From assembly GCF_036507355.1 (NCBI RefSeq), contig NZ_AP027877.1: a stretch of DNA of 64,000 nt; one strand, 5' to 3'. The notes under the pieces were generated by a model that was not told the DNA's origin, did not search any database, and saw only the letters and a program-made list of their open reading frames with translations. Position numbers and translations under genes: made by a program. The stretch is from Escherichia coli. Lineage in GTDB: Bacteria; Pseudomonadota; Gammaproteobacteria; Enterobacterales; Enterobacteriaceae. Each line of letters starts with the position of its first letter. Position 1 is the first letter of the stretch. Shown here in pieces: positions 34,975 through 45,206 of the stretch.

Positions 34975-36492
34975 ATGTCTGAACAACACGCACAGGGCGC
35001 TGACGCGGTAGTCGATCTTAACAATGAACTGAAAACGCGTCGTGAGAAGCTGGCGAACCTGCGCGAGCAGGGGATTGCCTTCCCGAACGATTTCCGTCGC
35101 GATCATACCTCTGACCAATTGCACGCAGAATTCGACGGTAAAGAGAACGAAGAACTGGAAGCGCTGAATATCGAAGTCGCCGTTGCTGGCCGCATGATGA
35201 CCCGCCGTATTATGGGTAAAGCGTCTTTCGTTACCCTGCAGGATGTGGGTGGCCGCATTCAGCTGTACGTTGCCCGTGACGATCTGCCGGAAGGCGTTTA
35301 CAACGAGCAGTTCAAAAAATGGGACCTCGGCGACATCCTCGGCGCGAAAGGTAAACTGTTCAAAACCAAAACCGGCGAACTGTCTATCCACTGTACCGAG
35401 CTGCGTCTGCTGACCAAAGCACTGCGTCCGCTGCCGGATAAATTCCACGGCTTGCAGGATCAGGAAGCGCGCTATCGTCAGCGTTATCTGGATCTCATCT
35501 CTAACGATGAATCCCGTAACACCTTTAAAGTGCGCTCGCAGATCCTCTCTGGTATTCGCCAGTTCATGGTGAACCGCGGCTTTATGGAAGTTGAAACGCC
35601 GATGATGCAGGTGATCCCAGGCGGTGCCGCTGCGCGTCCGTTTATCACCCACCATAACGCGCTGGATCTCGACATGTACCTGCGTATCGCGCCGGAACTG
35701 TACCTCAAGCGTCTGGTGGTCGGTGGCTTCGAGCGTGTATTCGAAATCAACCGTAACTTCCGTAACGAAGGTATCTCCGTACGTCATAACCCAGAGTTCA
35801 CCATGATGGAACTCTACATGGCTTACGCAGATTACAAAGATCTGATCGAGCTGACCGAATCGCTGTTCCGTACTCTGGCACAGGATATTCTCGGTAAGAC
35901 GGAAGTGACCTACGGCGACGTGACGCTGGACTTCGGTAAACCGTTCGAAAAACTGACCATGCGAGAAGCGATCAAGAAATATCGCCCGGAAACCGACATG
36001 GCGGATCTGGATAACTTCGACTCTGCGAAAGCGATTGCTGAATCTATCGGTATCCACGTTGAGAAGAGCTGGGGTCTGGGCCGTATCGTTACCGAGATCT
36101 TCGAAGAAGTGGCAGAAGCACATCTGATTCAGCCGACCTTCATTACTGAATATCCGGCAGAAGTTTCTCCGCTGGCGCGTCGTAACGACATTAACCCGGA
36201 AATCACAGACCGCTTTGAGTTCTTCATTGGTGGTCGTGAAATCGGTAACGGCTTTAGCGAGCTGAATGACGCGGAAGATCAGGCGCAGCGCTTCCTGGAT
36301 CAGGTTGCCGCGAAAGATGCAGGTGACGACGAAGCGATGTTCTACGATGAAGATTACGTTACCGCACTGGAACATGGCTTACCGCCGACAGCAGGTCTGG
36401 GGATTGGCATCGACCGTATGGTAATGCTGTTCACCAACAGCCATACCATCCGCGACGTTATTCTGTTCCCGGCGATGCGTCCGGTGAAATAA
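34975..36492 (+). CDS. lysS: Lysyl-tRNA synthetase
   Basis: 505-aa [43 protein letters not shown]. Confidence 0.95.
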
Positions 36493-36512
36493 GCATTACG
36501 TTATGCTCACAA

Positions 36513-36535
36513 CCCCGGCAAATGTCGGGGTTTTT
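36513..36535 (+). terminator. lysS intrinsic terminator
   Basis: Hairpin ccccggcaaatgtcgggg followed by TTTTT; IS1 end abuts the T-run. Confidence 0.6.
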
Positions 36536-36550
36536 GGTAATGACTCCAAC

Positions 36551-37054
36551 TTATTGATAGTGTTTTATGTTCAGATAATGCCCGATGACTTTGTCATGCA
36601 GCTCCACCGATTTTGAGAACGACAGCGACTTCCGTCCCAGCCGTGCCAGGTGCTGCCTCAGATTCAGGTTATGCCGCTCAATTCGCTGCGTATATCGCTT
36701 GCTGATTACGTGCAGCTTTCCCTTCAGGCGGGATTCATACAGCGGCCAGCCATCCGTCATCCATATCACCACGTCAAAGGGTGACAGCAGGCTCATAAGA
36801 CGCCCCAGCGTCGCCATCGTGCGTTCACCGAATACGTGCGCAACAACCGTCTTCCGGAGCCTGTCATACGCGTAAAACAGCCAGCGCTGGCGCGATTTAG
36901 CCCCGACATAGCCCCACTGTTCGTCCATTTCCGCGCAGACGATGACGTCACTGCCCGGCTGTATGCGCGAGGTTACCGACTGCGGCCTGAGTTTTTTAAG
37001 TGACGTAAAATCGTGTTGAGGCCAACGCCCATAATGCGGGCTGTTGCCCGGCAT
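36551..37054 (-). CDS. insB: IS1 InsB transposase segment
   Basis: 167-aa [40 protein letters not shown]. Confidence 0.9.
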
Positions 37055-37248
37055 CCAACGCCATTCATGGCCATATCAATGATTTTCTGGTGCGTACCGG
37101 GTTGAGAAGCGGTGTAAGTGAACTGCAGTTGCCATGTTTTACGGCAGTGAGAGCAGAGATAGCGCTGATGTCCGGCGGTGCTTTTGCCGTTACGCACCAC
37201 CCCGTCAGTAGCTGAACAGGAGGGACAGCTGATAGAAACAGAAGCCAC
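36973..37248 (-). CDS. insA: IS1 InsA
   Basis: 91-aa [43 protein letters not shown]. Confidence 0.9.
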
Positions 37249-37504
37249 TGGAGCACCTCAAAAACACCATCATACACTAAATCAGTAAGTTGGCAGCATC
37301 ACCCGCATCAGGATGGGAAATAGGGTAAAAAAGTAAGGAACTTCGATACCTCTACTACAGTGAATATTTTGCTGATGATACTTCCCTTTGCCAAATGAAA
37401 TTAACCTCTTTCTCTATTACCGCGTTTTTCCAGAAGCAAGAGATTGGGTATCAAGAGGCTGGCTGCTATGATATGGCGTCTTGTTTTTTAAGCGAGGAAA
37501 GATT

Positions 37505-38260
37505 TTGAGTGCGGGACGCCTGAATAAAAAATCTCTGGGTATCGTGATGTTGTTATCGGTTGGACTGCTTTTGGCGGGCTGTTCGGGTAGCAAATCATCC
37601 GATACAGGAACGTATTCCGGCTCCGTTTACACCGTGAAACGGGGGGATACGCTATATCGTATTTCGCGCACCACGGGAACCAGCGTAAAAGAACTGGCGC
37701 GACTGAACGGCATTTCCCCCCCTTACACTATTGAAGTAGGTCAGAAACTAAAACTGGGTGGGGCGAAAAGTAGCAGTAGTACACGTAAATCAACCGCCAA
37801 ATCAACGACTAAAACCGCATCGGTTACACCGTCATCAGCGGTACCGAAATCTTCCTGGCCGCCAGTAGGGCAACGTTGTTGGTTATGGCCAACGACAGGG
37901 AAAGTTATCATGCCGTATTCGACAGCAGATGGCGGCAATAAAGGGATTGATATCTCAGCTCCACGGGGTACACCTATTTACGCCGCGGGTGCAGGAAAGG
38001 TGGTGTATGTGGGCAACCAGCTGCGTGGCTACGGTAATCTCATCATGATTAAACACAGTGAAGATTACATTACGGCTTACGCCCATAATGACACGATGCT
38101 GGTAAATAATGGGCAAAGCGTGAGGGCTGGGCAAAAAATCGCCACCATGGGGAGCACGGATGCGGCATCTGTTCGCCTGCATTTCCAGATTCGTTACCGT
38201 GCAACGGCAATTGATCCGCTACGTTACTTGCCGCCGCAGGGCAGCAAGCCAAAATGCTGA
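37505..38260 (+). CDS. ygeR: LysM/M23-peptidase lipoprotein YgeR
   Basis: ORF 37481-38260; TTG at 37505 gives 251 aa MSAGRLNKKSLGIVMLLSVGLLLAGCSG (lipobox); LysM YTVKRGDTLYRIS. Confidence 0.85.
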   Translation: MSAGRLNKKSLGIVMLLSVGLLLAGCSGSKSSDTGTYSGSVYTVKRGDTLYRISRTTGTSVKELARLNGISPPYTIEVGQKLKLGGAKSSSSTRKSTAKSTTKTASVTPSSAVPKSSWPPVGQRCWLWPTTGKVIMPYSTADGGNKGIDISAPRGTPIYAAGAGKVVYVGNQLRGYGNLIMIKHSEDYITAYAHNDTMLVNNGQSVRAGQKIATMGSTDAASVRLHFQIRYRATAIDPLRYLPPQGSKPKC

Positions 38261-38338: not shown

Positions 38339-38412
38339 GCGGGCGTAGTTCAATGGTAGAACGAGAGCTTCCCAAGCTCTATACGAGGGTTCGATTCCCT
38401 TCGCCCGCTCCA
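38339..38412 (+). tRNA. glyU: tRNA-Gly (anticodon CCC)
   Basis: GCGGGCGTAGTTCAATGGTAGAACGAGAGCTTCCCAAGCTCTATACGAGGGTTCGATTCCCTTCGCCCGCTCCA, 74 nt with encoded CCA. Confidence 0.95.
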
Positions 38413-38546
38413 TGACCTTTCTTAAAGTACTCCAACCTACTGAATCCTAAGGGATACGGCTTTAAGCCTTCCGCTAGTTTTACTCACTGTAACCAACACT
38501 GTAACTAAATTTGTTGAAATAGTGAGCAGACTTAAGATCTCAGTAC

Positions 38547-40178
38547 ATGCTCAACTCAAAAACCTATCTTTATCAGCGCAATGGCGTCTTTTATATCCGC
38601 CTCAGGATGAAGTCCACAGATCGCCTGACCGTTTCACATCCTTCCCATAGCCGTTATAAAATAGCGTCAGTATCACTACGGACTAAGGATAGACGTACAG
38701 CTATGGCTTACTCACGGCAAATCAAGGCAGCACTTAGGGCAATCCATGCAGACAGACCCAACGCCTCCTATGAGGAAATGAGGGAACACCTGAGGGACAT
38801 CGCAGAGTGGGAGTTGTCTACAGGTCGTTCAGACCTCTTCGAGCCAGATATGAGAGATCTATACCGTGACCAGTATGGGGAAGTGGGAGAGAATCTTGTC
38901 CATGCTCTGGCAAGCGAGCCACTGACTATTGACCAGCATCGCTATATTAATGAGGCTCTTAATGTACTCAAGGCCTGCATGAAGCGCATTGAAGCGGGAG
39001 ATAGCCAGCCACTTATAGATTATATAGATGGATTTGATGCTGCTGCTGGGGCTAATGGCCAAGCCTCTGCAACTCTATCTGTTAGTGCTCCCCAAAAAAC
39101 AAGCATTACTGAAGGCAAACACTGCGTAACCGTTGCTTCTCTCTTTGAGCAGTACGAGCAGGAAAACGCCCAGAACTGGAAGCCAGCAACATTACGAGAA
39201 AACAAAGCTTCTCATGCTGCGTTAATCGAAGTTTTTGATTATCTGGGCCTCAATGCTGACGCCAATGTGTTAGCTCGTGCGGATATGCTTAGGGTTCGGG
39301 ATATCCTCCAGCAATTGCCGAAGAATCGTAAGCAGCGTTTCAAAGATGTTCCGTTGGTTGACCTGCTAGGTCGTGAGGATAAAACCGATTGTCTGGATAT
39401 TGTTACCATCAATAATAAATATCTCATTAAGATGGCGGCTGTTTTCAAGTGGGCCGTGCGTAATGACCTGATTAAAAAGAATATGACAGAAGGGCTAGAG
39501 CTTAAGGTTCCCCAGCGTAAAGCCTCTGAGGCGCGTAATGCTTTCTCTACGGAGCAGGTAGGACAACTACTGGCTGCCGCCCAAGTTTACTCACAGAGAC
39601 CTTCTGGTAAGCCGTATCATTATTATGTTACCGCCTTGGCTGCTATCACTGGGGCGAGACTCAATGAAATAGCCCAACTACAGGTCAAAGACGTCAGGAC
39701 CACTGAGGCGGGAACCGTTTATATTCATATCAATGAAGACGATAGTAGTCTACCCGGTAAGAGCATCAAGAACGCTCATAGTGACCGCTGTGTGCCTCTG
39801 GTCGATGGGGCCTATGGTTTTATATTGGCTGACTTTATGAGGTTGGTTGAGACCCGTAGAGGCGCTGATGGTGATGACGCTATGGTGTTCGATGGTCTTC
39901 GCCTCATGAAGAACGGTTACGGTGAGCAGGTGAGTAAATGGTTTAATCGGACGTTGTTGCCTAAAGTCCTCGCAGACCGTAGCGGCTTAGCGTTTCACTC
40001 GTTTAGACATACAGTTGCGACCCAGTTAAAACAACATGGGGTCGAGTTGGCGTATGCACAGGCGATCATGGGGCATAGTTCAGGGTCTATTACTTACGAC
40101 CGTTATGCTAAAGAGGTTGAGGTTGATAGACTGGTCAATGTGATGGCTGATGTTTATAAGGAGGTTGTGGCCCCTTAA
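38547..40178 (+). CDS. Tyrosine recombinase/integrase, unusually large (island 1)
   Basis: 543-aa ORF starting 135 bp after glyU; C-terminal HSFRHTVATQLKQ...AQAIMGHSSGSITYDRYAKE resembles catalytic R..H-x-x-R/Y box. Confidence 0.75.
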   Translation: MLNSKTYLYQRNGVFYIRLRMKSTDRLTVSHPSHSRYKIASVSLRTKDRRTAMAYSRQIKAALRAIHADRPNASYEEMREHLRDIAEWELSTGRSDLFEPDMRDLYRDQYGEVGENLVHALASEPLTIDQHRYINEALNVLKACMKRIEAGDSQPLIDYIDGFDAAAGANGQASATLSVSAPQKTSITEGKHCVTVASLFEQYEQENAQNWKPATLRENKASHAALIEVFDYLGLNADANVLARADMLRVRDILQQLPKNRKQRFKDVPLVDLLGREDKTDCLDIVTINNKYLIKMAAVFKWAVRNDLIKKNMTEGLELKVPQRKASEARNAFSTEQVGQLLAAAQVYSQRPSGKPYHYYVTALAAITGARLNEIAQLQVKDVRTTEAGTVYIHINEDDSSLPGKSIKNAHSDRCVPLVDGAYGFILADFMRLVETRRGADGDDAMVFDGLRLMKNGYGEQVSKWFNRTLLPKVLADRSGLAFHSFRHTVATQLKQHGVELAYAQAIMGHSSGSITYDRYAKEVEVDRLVNVMADVYKEVVAP

Positions 40179-40179
40179 G

Positions 40180-40225
40180 GATGACCATAGGCGATGACCA
40201 TAGGCGATGACCATAGGCGATGACA
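40180..40225 (+). repeat. 3.5 tandem copies of 13-bp unit GATGACCATAGGC
   Basis: Exact tandem copies at 40180, 40193, 40206 plus partial; start 1 bp after integrase stop. Confidence 0.9.
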
Positions 40226-40330
40226 CTTGCTACTATTCCTATGGTCCCCTTTGTGGTCCTATGTGGTCCTGTGTGACCCTTTGTGTGGTCATGTTTTGAC
40301 TCATAGTTTTCACTACTTGTCAAGCATATT

Positions 40331-40353
40331 TAATACGACTCACTATAGGGAGA
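40331..40353 (+). promoter_or_regulatory. Phage T7 RNA polymerase promoter, exact consensus
   Basis: TAATACGACTCACTATAGGGAGA = 23/23 match to T7 -17..+6 consensus; predicted +1 G at 40348; faces the KilA-N gene. Confidence 0.8.
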
Positions 40354-40585
40354 AGGGACACAAAAAGTTTTCTCTCTCTGTCTCTCTCTATGATGACACT
40401 TGCTACTACTTCAGGTAGCTTTAACTCTAACCGTAACTTATCGCATCCTTTCAGGGGCGGGATGACCAATTACAGACACCAAGCGTTCTACTTAAAATGA
40501 ATGCTTCCTGTGTGCTCTGGGTCAGTCGATAAGTGAATAGCCTTAGACATCATATTAATTATGGTCTCTAACCCCTACAGGGGCT

Positions 40586-40729
40586 TAACTTTAAGTATTA
40601 ACTTATAGTCTACTTAAAGACACAATTAAAGATTAACTTAAAGTATTAAATTATAGATTAATTAAAGACCAATTAAAGAGTAACTTTAAGTATTAACTTA
40701 TAGTCTACTTAAAGACACAATTAAAGATT
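40586..40729 (+). repeat. AT-rich iteron-like array: two identical 49-bp direct repeats with a degenerate copy between
   Basis: TAACTTTAAGTATTAACTTATAGTCTACTTAAAGACACAATTAAAGATT at 40586-40634 and 40681-40729. Confidence 0.9.
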
Positions 40730-40922
40730 GACTCTAAGGGAATACCTTAAGAGGTGATGATATTCATAATAATCAATCACCAAACCTATAGGTCTCCTCA
40801 AGGCATTACCCAGAAGCTAACTGTATGGCCCTGTATGGTCCTGTACGCCATTCTTTAGGATGCCATGTAGTTTCGTATGGCCTGATGCCTAGCGTGGCTC
40901 AGAGACCCTCCCAGTAGTAAAT

Positions 40923-40945
40923 CAATACGACTTACTAATAGGAGA
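40923..40945 (+). promoter_or_regulatory. Degenerate T7-like promoter (5 mismatches)
   Basis: CAATACGACTTACTAATAGGAGA retains the AATACGACT core; function uncertain. Confidence 0.3.
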
Positions 40946-41157
40946 CACACTCCGAACCACTCACCACGTGTCTCTCAAAGTTCCACCTCTCGCGCTTCAC
41001 CATACAGTAGCTCCGCACAGCTACGACACAATCATTCATTCAATCTCAAAGTCATTCTGTTTGCATCCTGTTGTCCTGCTGGTCTCCCTTCGCTTGGGGA
41101 CTTTGAGTGGGCCAGTAGGGGGCGGTTTAGTGTGCATATTTAAAAGGTAACCAAGCA

Positions 41158-41721
41158 ATGAACAATAAACATAAACATGCAGGTCATATTATCACTATTG
41201 AAGGCCACAGCTTTAAGTCTAATGAGTCTGGCATGTGGAATCTTACAGAAATATGGAAAATCCTCGGATTACCTAACAATAAGCTACCCTCTCAGTGGCG
41301 CGGCAAGGTAACAAAGAGGCTCACCGACATGCAAAAAATGCACGTCGAGAAGATTGGTATTGAAAGCATAACCTACGCAGACAAACAGGCTACCCTCAAG
41401 TATGCAGGATGGGTCTCTGAAGATTTCGAGGACATGGTCTATGCAGCCTTTGAGGCTATCCTTGAGATGCCTGAAGTTGCCACGGTCGTTGCTAATAAGA
41501 TGGTCGAACTTGGCTATCACGCTGAAGCTGAGCTATTGGAACGTCATAAGGACGACTATAGAGAAGCTATGCAGACCCTTAAAAAGATTGGTAAACGTGT
41601 TGACGGCAGGAAGCCTGAGCGCATCTACAAGGCCGTACTTAACGGTAATCTGACGAAATTTCAAGGGTTATCCATGATTTCTCGCAGCAGTGTCTGGTAC
41701 GCCCGAACAGTGAATCTATGA
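41158..41721 (+). CDS. KilA-N-like DNA-binding domain protein (island 1)
   Basis: 187-aa ORF; N-terminal IITIEGHSFKSNESGMWNLTEIWKILG ... ATLKYAGWVSEDFEDMV resembles KilA-N/anti-repressor N-domain by eye. Confidence 0.5.
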   Translation: MNNKHKHAGHIITIEGHSFKSNESGMWNLTEIWKILGLPNNKLPSQWRGKVTKRLTDMQKMHVEKIGIESITYADKQATLKYAGWVSEDFEDMVYAAFEAILEMPEVATVVANKMVELGYHAEAELLERHKDDYREAMQTLKKIGKRVDGRKPERIYKAVLNGNLTKFQGLSMISRSSVWYARTVNL

Positions 41722-41844
41722 TGGCTATCGATCACGATAGATGCCAGCGATCAATTTCAGGTTACCGATCGAAACAAACGATCAGCACGATGGTTGCAAT
41801 CGGATATCATATTGACACTTGTCTGACATCCTGAAGGTATCAAT

Positions 41845-42318
41845 ATGTTTGGGCTTTTTAAGAAAAAGGCAAAAGCGGAAAGGTGTTATGATGTAACACG
41901 CATTCAATACGAGCTGGTTGTAATGTCATCTAAGCTGATAAAAAAACAGACCGATATGTTCAAAGTAATAAAAGGGGAGCGAGAGGAGGCTTTAGGAGAC
42001 CCTTTATTATCAGCAGGGTATATAACGCCATGGGTCATTGGATATTGCACTGGTCTCCTGGATGCAGTGACTCAGACGGAGGCTAACAGGATGGCATTTA
42101 CATCAGAAATGCTTGGGCTTCTTTTTGCTGCAGTTTTCGGTGATGATAAGTCTCTTGAGGCCATGGGAACTTATATAGCCTGTAACGAAGCCTCCTCACC
42201 AGACCATGGATTTCATGTTACGTATGAGCTTTATATGTCTGGTCTAGCGAAAGCGTTTAATGAGGTATGTGAGGATAAACCTGCGATAGGACTTCTGAAC
42301 TATTTAATGCAGGATTGA
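41845..42318 (+). CDS. Hypothetical protein (island 1)
   Basis: 157-aa ORF downstream of KilA-N gene; no family recognised. Confidence 0.45.
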   Translation: MFGLFKKKAKAERCYDVTRIQYELVVMSSKLIKKQTDMFKVIKGEREEALGDPLLSAGYITPWVIGYCTGLLDAVTQTEANRMAFTSEMLGLLFAAVFGDDKSLEAMGTYIACNEASSPDHGFHVTYELYMSGLAKAFNEVCEDKPAIGLLNYLMQD

Positions 42319-42584
42319 AAATTTCCCACAAAAATCTCAGTGCCTATCTAACAGTAATAACCCTGCAACATTCCCCCGTATACCTCCAGAAGTTATCCAG
42401 AAGCCGAAGTAGGTATCCTGTCATGTATTTGAATCATCAAAGTTGTTCGTTCTATTCCTCTTTAGGGAATATTACAGCCCTACAGCCTTGACCAGAGATC
42501 ACTTGATGTGTAACCATAACTGTAACCAAAAGGATTCATCATCCTTTAAGAAACAATTGGTTAGTGAGTGATTGTCTTCGATAC

Positions 42585-42607
42585 TTCGATTCCCTTCGCC
42601 CGCTCCA
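42585..42607 (+). repeat. Direct repeat of glyU 3' end (att site duplication between island 1 and island 2)
   Basis: TTCGATTCCCTTCGCCCGCTCCA identical to 38390-38412. Confidence 0.9.
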
Positions 42608-42771
42608 AACTCAAGTCTCCTGAAGTCTACCAAACTCAATTTTTCCTTGATAAATCAGCAGTTATAGCTTTCTATTAGTCTATTGAACTCAATTGTACTC
42701 CCCCAGGGTCAAGCTCAATGTGGGGGTATGGATGGGGGTATAATTGTACCCCCTGCTGAGAGGTACCCCCA

Positions 42772-43998
42772 ATGAAGCTGACTGCTCGTCAGGTTGAAAC
42801 TGCGAAACCCAAAGAGAAGCCCTACAAACTGGCCGATGGTGGTGGGCTTTACCTGCTGGTTAATCCCAACGGTAAAAGATACTGGCGTCTCAAATACCGT
42901 TCGTTAGGTAAAGAGAAGCTGCTCGCTATTGGCGTTTATCCCGATGTTTCTTTAGCTGAGGCCCGAAGTAAGCGTGAGGATGCTAAAAGAACATTAGCGG
43001 CTGGCAACGATCCCTCTCTTGAACGAAAAATTGAGAAACTTAGTCGTCAACAAGACGCTGAAAACTCGTTTGAGGCTATCACACGGGAGTGGTATCAGCG
43101 TCGCTATGACCGCTGGTCTGTCTCCTACCGCGAAGAAATGCTGAGAACCTTTGAGAAAGATGTATTTCCTTATATCGGTCACAGGCCAATCAAAGATATC
43201 AAGCCGATGGAGTTGCTTGCAGTTCTTTCAAAGATAGAAGCACGAGGGGCAACAGAGAAAGTCCGCAAGGTTCGTCAGCGTTGTGGAGAGGTCTGGAAGT
43301 ATGCCGTTGTGACTGGGAGGGCCGAGTACAATCCAGCACCTGATCTAGCCAGCGCCGTGAGTCCTCATGAGAAAGAGCACTATGCTTTTTTAACCCAGGA
43401 TGAATTGCCTGAGTTTCTTCGGACTCTGAACGCCTATGCCGGTAGTGTGCTTGTTAAGATTGCGATGCAATTGCTCATTTTAACAGGAGTAAGGCCAGGG
43501 GAGTTGAGGCAAGCGGAGTGGCAGGAGTTTGATTTTGAGAAAAAGGTTTGGAATGTACCAGCGGAACGTATGAAAATGCGCCGCCCTCATCTTGTTCCAT
43601 TATCAAGCCAGGCAATTGACCTGCTTAATCAACTTAAACCCATAACGGGAGCAGGAGCGTTATTATTCCCAGGACGTAATAATCCTAAGAAACCGATGAG
43701 CGATATGGCATTGACTGTGTTGGTCAGGCGTATCGGCTATGCCGGGCGCGTTACAGGGCATGGATTCCGCCACACGATGAGTACCATTTTGCATGAGCAG
43801 GGATTCAACTCGGCCTGGATTGAGTTACAGCTGGCTCACGTCGATAAGAACTCAATTCGTGGGACGTATAACCATGCTCAATATTTGGAAGGTCGGCGGG
43901 AGATGATGCAGTGGTATGGAGATTTCATCGGTCAAGCAGGCAAATCCGGATCATCGCTAGCTTATGCAGCTATTAGCTTGACTGCTGAATTAGAGTGA
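42772..43998 (+). CDS. P4-type tyrosine integrase (island 2)
   Basis: 408 aa; N-terminal arm-binding MKLTARQVETAKPKEKPYKLADGGGLYLLVNPNGKRYWRLKYR; C-terminal GHGFRHTMSTIL...LAHVD...YNHAQY. Confidence 0.9.
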   Translation: MKLTARQVETAKPKEKPYKLADGGGLYLLVNPNGKRYWRLKYRSLGKEKLLAIGVYPDVSLAEARSKREDAKRTLAAGNDPSLERKIEKLSRQQDAENSFEAITREWYQRRYDRWSVSYREEMLRTFEKDVFPYIGHRPIKDIKPMELLAVLSKIEARGATEKVRKVRQRCGEVWKYAVVTGRAEYNPAPDLASAVSPHEKEHYAFLTQDELPEFLRTLNAYAGSVLVKIAMQLLILTGVRPGELRQAEWQEFDFEKKVWNVPAERMKMRRPHLVPLSSQAIDLLNQLKPITGAGALLFPGRNNPKKPMSDMALTVLVRRIGYAGRVTGHGFRHTMSTILHEQGFNSAWIELQLAHVDKNSIRGTYNHAQYLEGRREMMQWYGDFIGQAGKSGSSLAYAAISLTAELE

Positions 43999-44008
43999 GA
44001 AGGGGCAA

Positions 44009-44056
44009 GTTGAGCCTCTTCGCTGAGAAGAGGCTCAACGTGAACCTATTTTTTTG
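44009..44056 (+). terminator. Intrinsic terminator after int2
   Basis: Hairpin gttgagcctcttc-gctga-gaagaggctcaac followed by T-run. Confidence 0.65.
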
Positions 44057-44195
44057 GGAGTTAATACTTTTTGCAATTTTTTTTTTCGTGCCGTTGGATG
44101 TAAAGATCTGTGGGGGTTAGGGAAGAAAATCATGCTATGTTAGTCTTTGAGGAGTGAGTCAAAATGTTATAACTTTTTCAAAGAGGCGTTACATC

Positions 44196-45131
44196 GTGAA
44201 AGTCGTTTTTAATGTTAATGGTAAAAAAGTTCCGCTCAAATCTCTGCAATATATAAGTAAAGCAAATCAACTCGAAGTTATGCGGAATTGGTTTTTTGAG
44301 AATTTTGAAGATCCCGCGAACTCTTGCCCGTATGAATCCCGTGAAGGCGGGTATGCTTACATTTATGGGGGCCCATACGAAGCAAGTGAAGAGTTGCAAG
44401 CGATGTTTGAAGGACACGTGAAATTTGATTATATCCAAGAATTAGTCAATGAATTACAAGAACAGTGCTATGAATGGTCTGGTAATTCAAATAATATTAA
44501 TGATTGGTACGATGAAGACTTGTATGATGCTGTTACATCTTCTGAACATCCTTTTTCTAAGTTCGTTGAAAGCATTGATGGAATAAAATTGCTGTCTAAA
44601 GGCGAATTTAAAGATAAACAAAAAGATCATCTGCTTAGCATCCTATATATTAATGTCATTACAGCCCTGGAAACACTTTATGTTGAGTTATTTATTAACT
44701 CTATAGATAAAAACGACTCATATCTTGCTGACTTTATAGAAAAAGGTAAGACGGAATTTAAGGTAAATAAAGGAATATTGGCTTTGCCATTCAAAGGAGA
44801 AACTATTGAAAACATGAGGGCGCAATTAATTAAGGTAATTAAAGAGCATTTGATTAGTGCAAGTTGGCATAGTACAAACAAAGTTGTAGGACGTTATAAA
44901 GCTACATTTGATATAAAAGTACATAAAGAGTGGCCAATAGATGTGATCGAAATAGCAACTCAAAAGCGTAATCATTTAGTCCATCGTGGCGGGAAAGATA
45001 AAGAAGGTAATTCGGTAGTGATTACTGAACAGGATTTAGAAATGTTGCTGGATCACGCACAATCTCTTGGAGAAAAATTGTTTGATAGCCTTGAGGTGGC
45101 ATTACAGAAAAAAGATGAGAATGAATTTTGA
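44196..45131 (+). CDS. Hypothetical protein with HEPN-like Rx4H motif (possible abortive-infection RNase)
   Basis: ORF 44154-45131; GTG 44196 preferred (AAGAGG 9 nt upstream); motif KRNHLVHRGG near C-terminus. Confidence 0.4.
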   Translation: MKVVFNVNGKKVPLKSLQYISKANQLEVMRNWFFENFEDPANSCPYESREGGYAYIYGGPYEASEELQAMFEGHVKFDYIQELVNELQEQCYEWSGNSNNINDWYDEDLYDAVTSSEHPFSKFVESIDGIKLLSKGEFKDKQKDHLLSILYINVITALETLYVELFINSIDKNDSYLADFIEKGKTEFKVNKGILALPFKGETIENMRAQLIKVIKEHLISASWHSTNKVVGRYKATFDIKVHKEWPIDVIEIATQKRNHLVHRGGKDKEGNSVVITEQDLEMLLDHAQSLGEKLFDSLEVALQKKDENEF

Positions 45132-45182
45132 GTCTCGGGGTAGGTTGATAGTGCTACCGATAACGAGCAAGCAAATGATACT

Positions 45183-45203
45183 CGGCAGGCAGTGCCTGCC
45201 GGA
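45183..45203. terminator. Bidirectional terminator hairpin between convergent genes
   Basis: cggcaggcagtgcctgccgg palindrome between stops at 45131 and 45207. Confidence 0.5.
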
Positions 45204-45206
45204 GGA

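Follow-up and report, generated by a model that had tools for sequence, protein, structure and literature searches.

Adjacent deletions are a frequent cause of missing target duplications around insertion sequences, and in the LTEE they often grow stepwise (PMC11708052). The block between lysS and actS (ygeR) is the Escherichia coli version of a gut bacterial cluster linked to the anaerobic degradation of uric acid and purines (10.1101/2022.07.24.501321; 10.1101/2025.04.24.650524), and E. coli K-12 has served as a genetic model for the anaerobic urate and purine pathway (10.1101/2025.04.24.650524). We analysed a stretch of 64,000 nt from an E. coli contig (the window), in which this block is missing and a single IS1 stands in its place. 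A literature search found no specific prior description of a deletion extending from lysS to actS.

The interval singled out in a preliminary description of this DNA (36493–37504) is exactly the intergenic region between lysS, which ends at 36492, and actS, which starts at 37505, and it contains an intact IS1 of the IS1A type (Table 1). The element has the length (ca. 768 bp) and the imperfect terminal inverted repeats (GGTGATGCTGCCAACTTACTGAT / GGTAATGACTCCAACTTATTGAT) of the IS1 family: an exact IRR-type repeat occupies 36536–36562 (GGTAATGACTCCAAC...), at the end facing lysS, and the exact reverse complement of IRL occupies 37275–37303 (...GTTGGCAGCATCACC), at the end facing actS. InsA is intact, the A6C motif for −1 frameshifting is present, and the three Pfam domains found in the element, PF03811, PF12759 and PF03400 (DDE_Tnp_IS1), all score above their gathering cut-offs. 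The whole element is 100% identical to the IS1 of E. coli A30, from a horse, and 99.9% identical to that of strain 702/18. The 8–9 bp direct target-site duplication found around a simple IS1 insertion is lacking; as the preliminary description had claimed, the flanking 9-mers differ, being GGGGTTTTT on the left and CGCATCAGG on the right. This absence is what is expected if a deletion or a recombination came after insertion, and it is no argument against the identity of the element.

Table 1. Features around the IS1 scar in the window, and endpoints on the K-12 MG1655 map of ten other IS1-bounded deletions of the same block (loci L002, L025–L034 and L037). For deletions, the left endpoint is on the lysS side and the right endpoint on the actS side.
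Feature	Map	Start or left endpoint	End or right endpoint	Strand	Basis or remark
lysS (lysine-tRNA ligase), complete, last gene before the left breakpoint	window	34975	36492	+	505-aa ORF, collinear with K-12 lysS
lysS terminator hairpin (AACCCCGGC-AAAU-GUCGGGGUU), U-tract shortened	window	36511	36535	+	folding
IS1 (IS1A-type), 768 bp, intact	window	36536	37303	-	exact inverted repeats and length
insB' frame, DDE transposase domain	window	36551	37054	-	PF03400, E=2.3e-78
insA	window	36973	37248	-	91-aa ORF matching PF03811 and PF12759
Residual actS-xdhA intergenic region, 201 bp	window	37304	37504	+	BLAST and base-by-base comparison with K-12, SW071610 and intact relatives
actS/ygeR (LysM-M23 amidase activator), complete, TTG start	window	37505	38260	+	251 aa, length as in K-12
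glyU, tRNA-Gly(CCC)	window	38339	38412	+	ARAGORN
Tyrosine recombinase 1 of 2, glyU island	window	38568	40175	+	
Tyrosine recombinase 2 of 2, glyU island	window	42772	43995		
ygeH (HilA-family ETT2 regulator), truncated	window	55813	56790	-	325 of 458 aa
Deletion in KH_005	K-12	3,031,004	3,000,088		
Deletion in A30 (horse)	K-12	3,032,771	3,000,103		
Deletion in AST217	K-12	3,031,055	3,000,144		
Deletion in XJ6.2 (= ABW_A32/33)	K-12	3,015,117	3,000,161		
Deletion in SW071610 (= ET881)	K-12	3,033,058	3,000,515		
Deletion in PSJ-14	K-12	3,033,467	3,004,527		
Deletion in 23CRST009	K-12	3,032,783	3,003,384		
Deletion in 702/18	K-12	3,033,033	3,005,184		
Deletion in MB10	K-12	3,032,906	3,004,972		
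Deletion in GCA_964019995 (L037)	K-12	3,031,094	3,004,881		IS1 in opposite orientation

Alignment of the window with K-12 MG1655 (2,992,000–3,036,000) shows that both flanks of IS1 are collinear with K-12, in the same orientation, and flush with the IS1 termini (K-12 3,033,614, IS1, 3,000,088). The interval missing between them at this locus is K-12 3,000,089–3,033,613, with 25 annotated genes: xdhABC, ygeV, ygeW, ygeX, ygeY, hyuA, yqeA, yqeB, yqeC, mocA, ygfK, ssnA, ygfM, xdhD, xanQ, guaD, ghxQ, ygfS, ygfT, uacT, yqfG, yqfH and idi. The preliminary description was thus right that the xdh-to-idi interval is gone from this position, and its figure of about 35 kb between lysS and ygeR in K-12 becomes a measured 33,525 bp. 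Relocation of the block within the window was rejected, given that a BLAST comparison of all 64 kb with the K-12 block gave no match.

The left breakpoint lies at window position 36535|36536, 43 bp after the end of lysS, and the last base matching K-12 is 3,033,614. The idi coding sequence of K-12 ends at 3,033,613, and IS1 begins exactly at the expected idi stop codon (TTA in reverse complement): from the hairpin onward K-12 reads TTTTTTTATTT, with this reversed stop codon, and the window reads TTTTT followed by the GGTAATG of IS1. The lysS terminator hairpin folds in the window and in K-12 alike, and its U-tract is changed from U7AUUU in K-12 to U5GG in the window. This terminator formerly faced the convergent idi gene; with the shortened tract, transcription might possibly read through from lysS into the IRR end of IS1. 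The exact LysS protein of the window is widespread among E. coli, as are its exact RecJ and ActS proteins.

The right breakpoint (37303|37304) corresponds to K-12 3,000,088, inside the 453-bp actS-xdhA intergenic region. The breakpoint is separated from actS, which lies downstream, by 197 bp in K-12 coordinates and 201 bp in the window, and from the xdhA ATG by 257 bp; the ancestral sequence through it reads ...GGATTATTA|CGCATCAGG. The ActS protein, with its LysM and Peptidase_M23 domains, is found in identical form in many E. coli genomes.

Farther to the right, the alignment with K-12 ends at 38412, the last base of glyU, where a genomic island of ca. 17 kb (38413–55815) is integrated in place of most of the ETT2 type III secretion cluster. 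Besides its two tyrosine recombinases, the island contains an arsenic-resistance region (arsA-arsB) and a DUF2326 / 'ABC-three component system' module that was recognized from its similarity to E. coli L26. The ORF at 38568–40175 receives weak 'Glyco_hydro_15' Pfam labels and is annotated as GH15 in RefSeq for some strains; we rejected its identity as a glycoside hydrolase 15 after NCBIfam scans returned a tyrosine-recombinase C-terminal domain. The exact allele of the integrase next to glyU is very rare, occurring only on two 2-kb metagenome contigs. At the other border of the island, where ygeH is truncated, homology to K-12 starts only at the equivalent of position 1069 of L001.

The adjacency of lysS and actS could have been ancestral in this lineage, which the preliminary description had named as an outcome that would speak against a deletion. 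We rejected this reading. In the 1,109 bp to the right of the breakpoint, four loci from other E. coli (L004, L006, L007 and L012) differ from the window by one mismatch (99.91% identity); they read without interruption across ...GGATTATTA|CGCATCAGG and carry xdhCBA. Indeed, xdhCBA is always immediately upstream in the E. coli assemblies encoding the exact ActS protein. We also surveyed 5,426 complete RefSeq E. coli genomes, a collection from which the IS1-rich Shigella are excluded. Of these, 5,151 (ca. 95%) have 80% or more of the xdhA-xanQ segment (24.6 kb), neither window junction is contiguous in any of the 5,426, and in none does the 3′ end of lysS come within ca. 1.1 kb of actS. The junction patterns and a 38-mer private to the window were likewise not found in species-representative genomes, nor was the right junction in JGI metagenomes. 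Since flank-identical relatives have xdhCBA and no surveyed genome joins the two genes, the lysS-actS adjacency is derived, and it is unique within the collection of 5,426 genomes. For the 25 kb to the left of IS1, identity to complete RefSeq E. coli genomes reaches 99.0% at most.

Searches with the two junctions of the window, followed by mapping of each junction found onto K-12, revealed ten further distinct pairs of endpoints within the xdh-idi block (Table 1), nine in closed E. coli chromosomes or clones and one in an NCBI assembly. IS1 is full-length in all ten and flanked by a duplication in none; except in GCA_964019995, it is oriented as in the window. They thus share the block, the element and the lack of a duplication with the window and differ from it, and from each other, in their endpoint pairs. 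Their sizes range from 15.0 to 32.7 kb, so that the 33.5 kb of the window are the largest, and all eleven events lack K-12 3,005,185–3,015,116, from the 5′ part of ygeV to yqeC. Gene idi is complete in nine of the ten and truncated in PSJ-14, whereas the window alone lacks all of idi and abuts the lysS terminator.

The right breakpoint of KH_005 coincides to the base with that of the window. The IS1 of KH_005 is 96.9% identical to that of the window and its flank 98.4%, and this divergence indicates an independent event at 3,000,088. As a base-specific hot spot, this position is not significant alone, the probability of such a coincidence being ca. 0.13 given five junctions within 74 bp. In two other strains, CUVM53 and VL40, IS1 lies at 2,999,982 and 3,000,041, respectively; these are the only two copies that keep the xdhA side attached, and both are rearranged on the actS side. 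Altogether, there are eight independent IS1 junctions within ca. 180 bp upstream of actS (K-12 2,999,982–3,000,161), and no simple IS1 insertion with a duplication was seen in this segment, which comprises 37304–37410 of the window and adjoining DNA that the window has lost. In AST217, another IS1 (6367–7134 of its locus, L029) follows closely after glyU and joins it to yqeG, so that in this strain IS1-bounded deletions have removed DNA to either side of actS-glyU.

The distribution of the endpoints is suggestive of an accumulation near actS and near idi and lysS. The left endpoint is at most 2.6 kb from lysS in four of the five events found through the right junction alone (rough P = 2e-4, uniform model), and the right endpoint is at most 5.1 kb from actS in all five found through the left junction (rough P = 8e-5), both values depending on thresholds picked post hoc and on searches anchored at the flanks of the window. 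Among the 5,426 complete genomes, ygeX-ygeY, the core of the cluster, is absent from 252 (4.6%), and idi is absent from two (0.04%), while a further 35 have an incomplete copy. Loss of the purine cluster thus recurs in a minority of genomes and complete loss of idi is very rare, a rarity that fits idi and lysS acting as a barrier where other deletions stop. The window may tentatively be seen as the extreme case of a recurrent, convergent loss of the core of the purine cluster through IS1 in IS1-rich lineages, driven either by selection for the loss or by IS1 hot spots at both borders of the block combined with a strong purifying selection that protects idi and that the lineage of the window would have escaped.

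For a locus with this structure, these breakpoints, a derived state and counterparts in other strains, the probable origin is an IS1-mediated adjacent deletion that removed the block from xdhA to idi and left one intact IS1 as a scar. Initially, the element would have entered the DNA at what is now one of its two junctions; as its anchor we slightly prefer the AT-rich stretch preceding actS, because IS1 has struck there repeatedly in other strains. One or more intramolecular (replicative) transpositions into neighbouring DNA would then have removed everything between the element and its new target, and the flanks would differ because this step eliminated one of the two copies of the target duplication made at insertion. 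On the left, the deletion would have reached the furthest point that spares lysS, the first base after the terminator stem and U5. The main competitor is homologous, RecA-mediated recombination between two directly oriented copies of IS1, one in the lysS-idi spacer and one upstream of actS, flanked by parental duplications of GGGGTTTTT and CGCATCAGG, which would leave one IS1 whose two flanks come from different parental copies and so predicts exactly the final sequence observed. Of the explanation given in the preliminary description, deletion through IS1 therefore stands, with its collinear, flush flanks and the block gone from between them, and the adjacent route does not follow from the sequence left behind. 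Recombination between IS copies is also a frequent cause of lost duplications (PMC11708052), and strains with similar deletions are rich in IS1, with IS1 at 10 to more than 40 places in each genome versus a median of ca. 10–12. Recombination requires, however, that two equally oriented copies had inserted beforehand, and adjacent deletion is favoured because it needs only one. As for precursors of either route, a simple IS1 insertion in this orientation occurs within ca. 0.6 kb of either breakpoint in none of the 5,426 complete genomes, among which the lineage of the window is not represented. Nor does the IS1 of the window, identical to the copy of another strain, carry a chimeric signature, a feature that is uninformative if the copies of the genome are all alike. 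We consider recombination a credible route, although clearly the less probable of the two.

Two further explanations are weaker. A multicopy repeat such as IS1 breaks or mis-joins short-read assemblies, and the apparent deletion might be an assembly mis-join across the element, or the block might survive elsewhere in the genome, for example between two IS1 copies or after a transposition or inversion. This is improbable, considering that the join is perfectly collinear, with the orientation of the ancestral map, that structurally equivalent IS1-bounded deletions of the block are known in several closed chromosomes, and that the 64-kb window holds no sequence of the block. Still less probable, to the point that we give it little weight, is a one-step capture of IS1 at a double-strand break during an IS-independent deletion, a hypothesis taken from PMC11708052. 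It would explain the lack of simple-insertion precursors at the surveyed junctions, but it is hypothetical and undemonstrated for IS1, and the same study assigns all 14 IS-associated deletions of the LTEE to two-step adjacent deletions (PMC11708052).

Judging from K-12 annotation, the deletion is predicted to eliminate at this locus XdhABC, XdhD and the anaerobic urate-purine pathway of YgeW-YqeA, YgfK and SsnA, together with the guanine deaminase GuaD, the transporters XanQ, GhxQ and UacT, MocA and Idi. The MCD cofactor, which PaoABC requires as well, is a product of MocA; E. coli can do without idi, as IspH yields IPP and DMAPP alike. A strain carrying the scar would thus be unable to use urate or xanthine by the route encoded in the block and would be without MocA-dependent MCD cofactor. 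Such a strain would also be naturally idi-null, offering a background of that kind, and would mark its lineage as one under relaxed selection or genome reduction. The repeated erosion of the purine cluster by IS1 matters wherever urate degradation by gut isolates is predicted from the presence of the cluster. The event itself is an ordinary IS-mediated deletion, of a known kind, unusual only in also removing idi; the rarity of idi loss and the recurrent erosion of the cluster by IS1 in other strains give it a modest added interest.

Classical IS1 adjacent deletions keep an intact IS1 at the novel joint, start at an IS1 terminus, lack a duplication and have collinear flanks, and the window shows no structural difference from them; a precursor insertion, though, was seen in none of the 5,426 genomes. 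The large IS150- and IS1-associated deletions of E. coli B in the LTEE (PMC11708052) offer another parallel: there, too, IS copies devoid of a duplication bound large deletions. Those are laboratory events with time-resolved precursors, whereas the window comes from a natural isolate and has no time series. The LTEE deletions are reported to grow stepwise from a fixed IS (PMC11708052), a behaviour that fits the way in which the endpoints of deletions in this block pile up against lysS and idi.
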